Assembly: GCF_988243305.1 (NCBI RefSeq)
Contig: NZ_OZ547136.1
Length of the DNA stretch: 64,000 bases
Direction: 5' to 3' (one strand)
Shown here: piece by piece, positions 56,522 to 57,479 of the stretch
How the letters are laid out: each line of letters begins with the position of its first letter
Numbering within the stretch: the stretch's first letter is position 1
Position numbers and translations under genes: made by a program
The notes under the pieces: generated by a model
Seen by the model: only the letters and a program-made list of their open reading frames with translations
Told to the model about the DNA's origin: nothing
Database searches by the model: none

Positions 56522-57479
56522 ATGACAAACTTCACAACCAGCACGCCGCATGACGCATTATTTAAATCCTTTCTCACGCACCCTGACACCGCGCGGGATT
56601 TTATGGAGATCCACTTACCCAAAGATTTACGTGAACTGTGCGATCTCGACAGCTTAAAACTGGAATCCGCAAGCTTCGTCGATGAAAAATTGCGGGCGCT
56701 ACACTCCGATATTCTGTGGTCGGTAAAGACCCGTGAAGGTGATGGTTATATTTACGTAGTGATTGAACATCAGAGCCGCGAGGATATCCATATGGCCTTT
56801 CGCCTGATGCGATATTCCATGGCGGTGATGCAGCGCCATATCGAGCATGATAAACGCCGGCCGCTACCGCTGGTCATCCCGATGCTGTTTTATCACGGTA
56901 GCCGTAGTCCTTATCCCTGGTCTTTGTGCTGGCTGGACGAATTTGCCGACCCGACTACTGCACGGAAGCTTTATACTGCAGCGTTCCCGCTGGTGGATGT
57001 CACTGTCGTGCCGGACGACGAGATTGTGCAGCACCGCAAAGTCGCCCTGTTGGAGTTGATCCAAAAGCATATTCGCCAGCGCGATCTAATGGGACTTACT
57101 TGATCAACTGGCAGTATTACTGGTTACAGGGTGCGCTAATGACAGCCAGATAACCGCGCTGTTAAATTACATTTTACTGACTGGCGATGAAGCGCGTTTT
57201 AAAGAGTTTATCAGCGAACTAACCAGTCGAATGCCACAACAAAGGGAGCGAATAATGACGATTGCAGAGCGAATTCATAATGATGGATGGCTGTTGGGAA
57301 GGGAGAGGGGGAGGAAAGAAGGGAAAGTAGAAGGGGAACGGAGCCTCCTCCGATTGTTGTTGCAGAATGGGGCCGATCCTGAATGGATACAACGATATAC
57401 CGGACTTTCGGCAGAGCAAATGCAGGCATTAGATCAGCCCTTGCCTGAAAGCAAGCGTGATCCATGGATCGAGTACTAA
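56522..57479 (+). pseudogene. rpnD: recombination-promoting nuclease RpnD (yjiP/yjiQ), split by frameshift
   Basis: N-terminal Rpn/transposase_31-like part 56522..57103 (193 aa) stops early; the remainder continues in other frames (56926..57153 and 57231..57479). Confidence 0.65.

Follow-up and report, generated by a model that had tools for sequence, protein, structure and literature searches.

Locus organization and gene identity

The window, i.e. the whole stretch of DNA analysed here, comprises 64,000 nucleotides of contig NZ_OZ547136.1 (RefSeq assembly GCF_988243305.1). The locus under study is an rpn gene that lies between mdtM and yjiR and is broken into two pieces, the second of which contains a nested reading frame (Table 1). 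The order mdtM(-), rpn(+), yjiR(-) is common to the window and the three genomes that were opened beside it, NY1601, JJ1886 and K-12. The K-12 counterpart at the mdtM/yjiR site is rpnD, with which the window shares 92% DNA identity; identity to other E. coli rpnD alleles amounts to 96.7-99.7%. A match to the locus was found by megablast in 4,243 of 5,426 complete E. coli genomes, always annotated as Rpn family nuclease. These family matches, the two neighbours and the position in K-12 identify the window gene as an orthologue of rpnD, and not of rpnA, B, C, E or a plasmid rpn. The name rpnD (yjiP/yjiQ), already proposed in the initial annotation of this DNA, is borne out by this synteny and by the DNA identity with K-12. 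Chromosomal rpnD encodes a PD-(D/E)XK 'recombination-promoting nuclease', a member of the Rpn/YhgA family, and is located at the margin of the restriction ('immigration control') region.

Table 1. Features of the rpnD locus in the window

Feature	Position	Strand	Remarks
mdtM	54823-56064	-	5' neighbour of the rpn locus
5' piece of rpnD	56522-57103	+	193 codons and premature TGA
Lesion, single inserted C	57099	+	from alignment with intact alleles; context ACTTA[C]TTGATC
3' piece of rpnD, +1 frame	57102-57479	+	125 codons and TAA; residues 194-318 of the intact protein
Promoter-like site ATGACA-18-(TG)TAAATT	57139-57168	+	consensus match only; downstream of the lesion, 87 nt upstream of the RpnS start
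Internal translation start	57242-57257	+	Shine-Dalgarno AAGGGAG at 57242-57248, 6-nt spacer, ATG at 57255-57257
Nested RpnD-S reading frame, presumed antitoxin	57255-57479	+	74 codons and stop, intact, wholly downstream of the frameshift
Variable four-residue-repeat stretch, RpnS helix 1	57294-57329	+	from allele alignment
yjiR	57722-59134	-	3' neighbour of the rpn locus

Both pieces are recognized by models of the Rpn family. PF04754 (Transposase_31 / YhgA-like) matches the 193-aa piece with 279.9 bits (cut-off 21, E=1.4e-83), and NCBIfam TIGR01784 (Rpn family) matches the 5' piece with 127.9 bits (cut-off 52.1, E=6e-37) and the 3' piece with E=3e-07. Against the RpnA model the 5' piece (E=3e-88) aligns nearly without gaps, residues 3-192 against positions 3-191, and the 3' piece (E=2.7e-19) covers model positions 193-291 of 292. 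In PADLOC-DB 2.0.0, a library without an Rpn model, no model matches intact RpnD or either piece.

The frameshift and the two pieces

The window was aligned with the intact alleles of NY1601 and JJ1886 (both 957 nt / 318 aa) and with K-12, and in all three alignments the extra C at 57099 is the only length difference that breaks the frame. It lies outside any homopolymer run and inside codon 193, which is changed from ATT to ACT, with TGA becoming codon 194. From 57102 to 57479 the sequence is free of stops, and the 125 residues translated from it are identical to the C-terminus of the intact protein. An open reading frame of 82 codons (57231-57479) is found here in a frame other than that of the 193-aa frame. 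A frameshifted rpnD whose N-terminal Rpn frame of 193 aa ends at 57103 had been described in the initial annotation; the alignments and the PF04754 match agree with this. The same account had the C-terminal part continue in other frames, in at least two pieces, and the remainder does run off-frame to 57479, but in exactly two pieces and in a single other frame. Several lesions or several frames in rpnD are ruled out, with a single inserted C, an open 57102-57479 and a sequence otherwise identical to that of NY1601.

Over its 958 bp the window gene differs from the intact rpnD of NY1601 by the inserted C alone; without this base the NY1601 allele encodes a full-length protein. This intact 318-aa RpnD (WP_021564836.1) was found as an exact protein on 162 contigs. 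The rpnD gene of the window is therefore a recent, one-hit pseudogene without further decay. The earlier view of a 'decayed copy' does not hold, as an intact allele that still circulates agrees with the gene at every other base. A full-length Rpn frame is lacking, and since it is the inserted C that splits the gene into the pieces of 193 aa and 125 codons, the locus is a pseudogene derivative of an Rpn family member rather than a functional member.

Origin of the inserted base

The initial annotation had left room for a homopolymer sequencing error, and the window is indeed one base away from an intact allele, that of NY1601. Furthermore, all 5,426 complete RefSeq E. coli genomes lack the exact 61-mer around the inserted C, and this also fits an artefactual base in a strain whose gene is intact. 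Against such an error stands first the site itself, which is not homopolymeric. Records in NCBI, ENA and Logan moreover contain the exact 193-aa product on 299 contigs of up to 4.8 Mb (422 index blocks), which stem from various projects and sources. The identical insertion was read in two isolate assemblies and one metagenome scaffold (L006, L007 and L008). L007 and L008 agree with the window over all 958 bases of rpnD, but their flanks of about 6 kb differ from it at 49 and 79 positions, respectively, and a different gene follows yjiS, so that the same allele is carried by different strains. An error would not recur in such independent assemblies, and an artefact is effectively excluded; we regard it as the least probable of the readings considered here, with hardly any weight left to it.

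The quality of the assembly around the locus points in the same direction. Over about 44 kb, at about 99% identity to NY1601, the insertion at 57099 is the sole indel within a gene that breaks a frame; the remaining indels are intergenic, 24-bp in-frame or self-cancelling, such as a -1/+1 pair two bases apart in yjiN. With no second frameshifted gene over this distance, the assembly is not prone to indels. The insertion at 57099 is, judging from the other assemblies with the identical allele, a genuine mutation that is restricted to a lineage.

The 24-bp in-frame indel is an extra repeat unit (GTACTGTCACTGGCTTGTTTCTCG) at 49005-49028, in the gene of a large pentapeptide-repeat protein, and represents repeat-number variation. 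Four single-base insertions relative to NY1601 fall within 11 intergenic bases (48582-48592) between this pentapeptide-repeat gene and a gene with an SdiA-regulated domain; they probably form one small stretch of divergent sequence and did not arise separately.

Fate of the long protein

According to Kingston et al. 2017 (PMC5350276), overexpression of RpnA-D is toxic, induces SOS and promotes recombination independently of RecA, and RpnA is a Mg-dependent endonuclease that requires D11, D63, E82 and Q84. The link of Rpn paralogs to horizontal transfer, which the initial annotation had mentioned, is in line with this report, where it is RecA-independent. In the window, a single C inserted in the lineage of the strain shifts the frame in codon 193, and RpnD-L, the long nuclease and toxin, stops after 193 residues. 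As read from the translation, the fragment keeps D11, D63, E82, Q84 and R94 as well as the PDDE motif at 164-167 (P164-D165-D166-E167); R94 and this motif with D165 likewise belong to the RpnA residues listed by Kingston et al. 2017. It spans PF04754 up to profile position 184 of 203; about 18 last positions (profile 185-203) and the entire C-terminal domain are lost. The truncation thereby removes, besides the end of PF04754, the whole domain for oligomerisation and antitoxin binding. Because of these two losses we infer that truncated RpnD is largely or wholly inactive; RpnD that lacks only its last 45 residues already shows much lower activity (Kingston et al. 2017, PMC5350276). Some residual nuclease activity of the fragment may exist, because all residues essential in RpnA are kept.

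Full-length RpnD-L could still be made if ribosomes paused at ACU-UGA and skipped one base, a programmed or tolerated +1 frameshift that would yield L-T-D-Q in place of L-I-D-Q. A UGA directly follows the altered codon, which is preceded at a distance of a few bases by a G-rich AUGGGA; we take this combination to be loosely reminiscent of the prfB site. The G-rich motif is present in intact alleles as well, however, no slippery sequence was found at 57090-57105, and tRNA-Thr on ACU cannot re-pair on CUU. The insertion is also derived and restricted to a lineage, being absent from 17 sampled alleles and from the 5,426 complete genomes, and is therefore not a conserved recoding signal. We consider recoding very unlikely, if slightly less so than a sequencing error. 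A programmed-frameshift gene of the prfB type (+1) or the IS3 type (-1) was rejected as a candidate, with no slippery motif and no conservation among homologues.

A related proposal is that the gene is functionally split, with the 193-aa core and a separate C-terminal protein reassembling into the two-domain toxin or replacing it, in a way comparable to Rpn systems with a separate rpnSs gene downstream. All catalytic residues are indeed kept in the 5' piece. But residues 194-244, i.e. the linker and the end of PF04754, cannot be made, because there is no in-frame start codon between 57102 and 57231. The mutation is furthermore a recent, one-step event with no sign of adaptation, and RpnD without its tail shows weak activity (Kingston et al. 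2017, PMC5350276). This arrangement is improbable, although it deserves a little more credit than recoding. Loss of the long protein by a genuine and recent +C frameshift, with the nested RpnD-S reading frame left intact, is very probably the correct explanation.

The nested reading frame of the presumed antitoxin

By the current understanding of rpn genes, toxin and antitoxin share a single gene (RpnL/RpnS) that takes part in defence against phages (Zhong et al. 2023, PMC10400941). In that study, translation of RpnS begins within the 3' part of the gene, on a short transcript that has a start site of its own, and RpnS binds and blocks the cognate long nuclease RpnL. Four-residue repeats in the shared domain vary among strains and set the specificity of pairing. 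All rpn genes of K-12 have an internal transcription start site, all five K-12 RpnS proteins were detected, and the internal start of RpnA was mutated at the RBS codons K240/E241 and at M244. Plasmid-borne Rpn protects against T-even phages; these defence data concern RpnP2 and not RpnD, which is absent by name from the main text of that paper. The initial annotation did not take the RpnS result into account.

The rpnD gene of the window resembles these systems in its internal ribosome-binding site and ATG at the homologous position and in a variable four-residue repeat that starts 8-20 residues past the internal Met; its C-terminal domain is predicted to be helical, with RpnA-S (7TH0) as best, though not significant, match in the PDB. 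Unlike them, it has a broken long (toxin) frame, and at most the antitoxin half remains. The ATG at 57255 is Met245 of intact RpnD and the counterpart of RpnA Met244. It is invariant in all 18 alleles aligned, and the AGGGAG before it nearly so (AGAGAG in O157:H7); an upstream ATG at 57231 is not conserved among these alleles. The 306-, 314- and 318-aa alleles differ by indels of 12 and 36 nt that start 12-14 residues past the Met, and the repeat stretch of the window exceeds that of K-12-type alleles by 36 nt and that of 314-aa alleles by 12 nt. This variation in length within RpnD-S agrees with the four-amino-acid repeat variation of Zhong et al. 2023 (PMC10400941).

The promoter-like site listed in Table 1 may be the internal promoter behind a short transcript, with a match no better than chance: three such sites were found in the region and 2.5 are expected from shuffled sequence. 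The 74-aa frame has already been called as a separate gene, with a precomputed match to PF27070 (HTH_Rpn_C) that is marked weak. A Pfam search of the 74-aa frame gave no match at E<=0.01, and for the 74-aa and 125-aa tails only DUF6318 was recorded, below threshold. PDB entry 7TH0 is the top sequence match of the tail, at a non-significant E=0.082. It is also the top Foldseek match in the PDB (E=0.56, probability 0.72, TM 0.56 on the target) for a low-confidence AlphaFold model of RpnS, built from an alignment of 11 sequences with a pLDDT of 65. The predicted resemblance of the tail to the three-helix bundle of RpnA-S is consistent with an RpnS but not significant.

RpnD-S would have its own ribosome-binding site and start codon and probably its own promoter, all downstream of the lesion. 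Since the lesion lies upstream of this intact frame, we infer that the toxin is probably dead and that RpnD-S, the antitoxin, is possibly still made; if still expressed, it would be left as an orphan antitoxin. The intactness of the RpnS frame is uninformative on selection, because the lesion is so young.

Broken rpnD alleles in E. coli

The locus is without a match in about one fifth of the complete E. coli genomes, and one or more of the matches amount to a short remnant only. Of 17 complete genomes picked at even intervals from the megablast ranking of E. coli genomes, 14 have an intact rpnD, of 306, 314 or 318 aa, and three have a broken one (K-12 type, O157:H7 and Z226-6), so that the gene is broken in roughly one fifth of the genomes that have it; the inserted C of the window is absent from all 17. 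With broken alleles in the sample and absent loci besides, breakage of rpnD is commonplace, and the window is one more instance with a mutation of its own.

The rpnD of K-12 (yjiP/yjiQ; Kingston, Ponkratz and Raleigh 2017) is like that of the window in position, in domain layout and in being interrupted. The window allele, a member of the 318-aa class, differs from it in having three four-residue repeats beyond those of the 306-aa K-12 type. In K-12 (L003 3074-3994), codon 104 is changed from CAG to TAG (amber); 338 complete genomes, MG1655, C600 and J53 among them, carry the exact 61-mer of this site. A shared lesion is ruled out, the K-12 amber lying at codon 104 and the inserted C of the window in codon 193; the two genes were therefore inactivated independently. 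Strong toxicity and SOS induction by overexpressed K-12 rpnD have been reported in a paper whose main text mentions no amber, stop codon or suppressor (Kingston et al. 2017, PMC5350276). An amber suppressor in the strains of that study, or a repaired clone, may reconcile this toxicity with the amber at codon 104.

The broken alleles of O157:H7 and Z226-6 are, like that of the window, independent and lineage-specific inactivations, and they differ from it in type and position of the mutation. In the rpnD of O157:H7 strain 3384 (NZ_CP017440.1; L017 173-1130), 25 bp (ATGACGATTGCAGAGCGAATTCATA), the internal RpnS start codon among them, are duplicated in tandem. This shifts the long frame, whose first stop is at codon 261, and a complete RpnS frame restarts at the second copy of the ATG. 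In strain Z226-6 (NZ_CP159641.1; L015 173-1117), a TGG to TGA change at codon 284 lies inside the RpnS part, so that RpnS is truncated too, whereas the lesion of the window spares it. RefSeq annotates the Z226-6 gene as a normal, shorter CDS of 283 aa and not as a pseudogene.

K-12, O157:H7 and the window each break only the long frame, and the RpnD-S frame survives in all three. This raises the thought that alleles with a dead toxin and a live antitoxin are favoured rather than merely tolerated. If so, an orphan RpnD-S could be retained because it protects the cell from RpnD-L toxins that arrive with a matching number of repeats, or because it acts as a small HTH regulator. However, 77% of the gene is toxin-only, the fourth broken allele (Z226-6) strikes RpnS, and the lesion of the window is too young to show selection. 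The four independent lesions, three upstream of the RpnS part and one inside, are indistinguishable from the 77:23 expectation by length, giving no sign that RpnS is avoided. Selection for such alleles is doubtful, yet it is the least improbable of the alternatives discussed here.

The frameshift in the window is an event of a known kind, an ordinary lineage-specific one-base pseudogenisation of a known accessory gene. As the loss of a nuclease/toxin gene that many genomes lack altogether, it has little weight alone, and its added value is limited to the nested-antitoxin context and the intact sister allele. For annotation, the 193-aa product, deposited as 'hypothetical protein', and the tail, deposited as a separate 74-aa gene, together form one rpnD pseudogene with a single hit, in which the nested antitoxin is possibly still live. 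The window allele and its intact sister, one base apart, are a natural isogenic pair for the functions of RpnD-L and RpnD-S in a wild strain.

Other features of the window

A 237-aa open reading frame (59551-60264, minus strand) lies between yjiS and the type I restriction gene hsdR (60329-63592). It has only sub-threshold Pfam matches to membrane domains and no PADLOC match. The gene is found after yjiS in most of the assemblies with the inserted C that were read (L006 type), and L007 and L008 have a GmrSD gene there.

A block of the CP4/leuX-island type extends from 2231 to 13827. It contains genes for a YeeP-like GTPase, an Ag43-type autotransporter (3439-6633), IrmA, DUF932, an antirestriction protein, a RadC-like protein, the CbeA/CbtA toxin-antitoxin pair and DUF5983, and an 840-aa open reading frame without a Pfam match (6748-9270). 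NY1601 has at this place IS remnants and a P4-like satellite with a KwaB-like gene.
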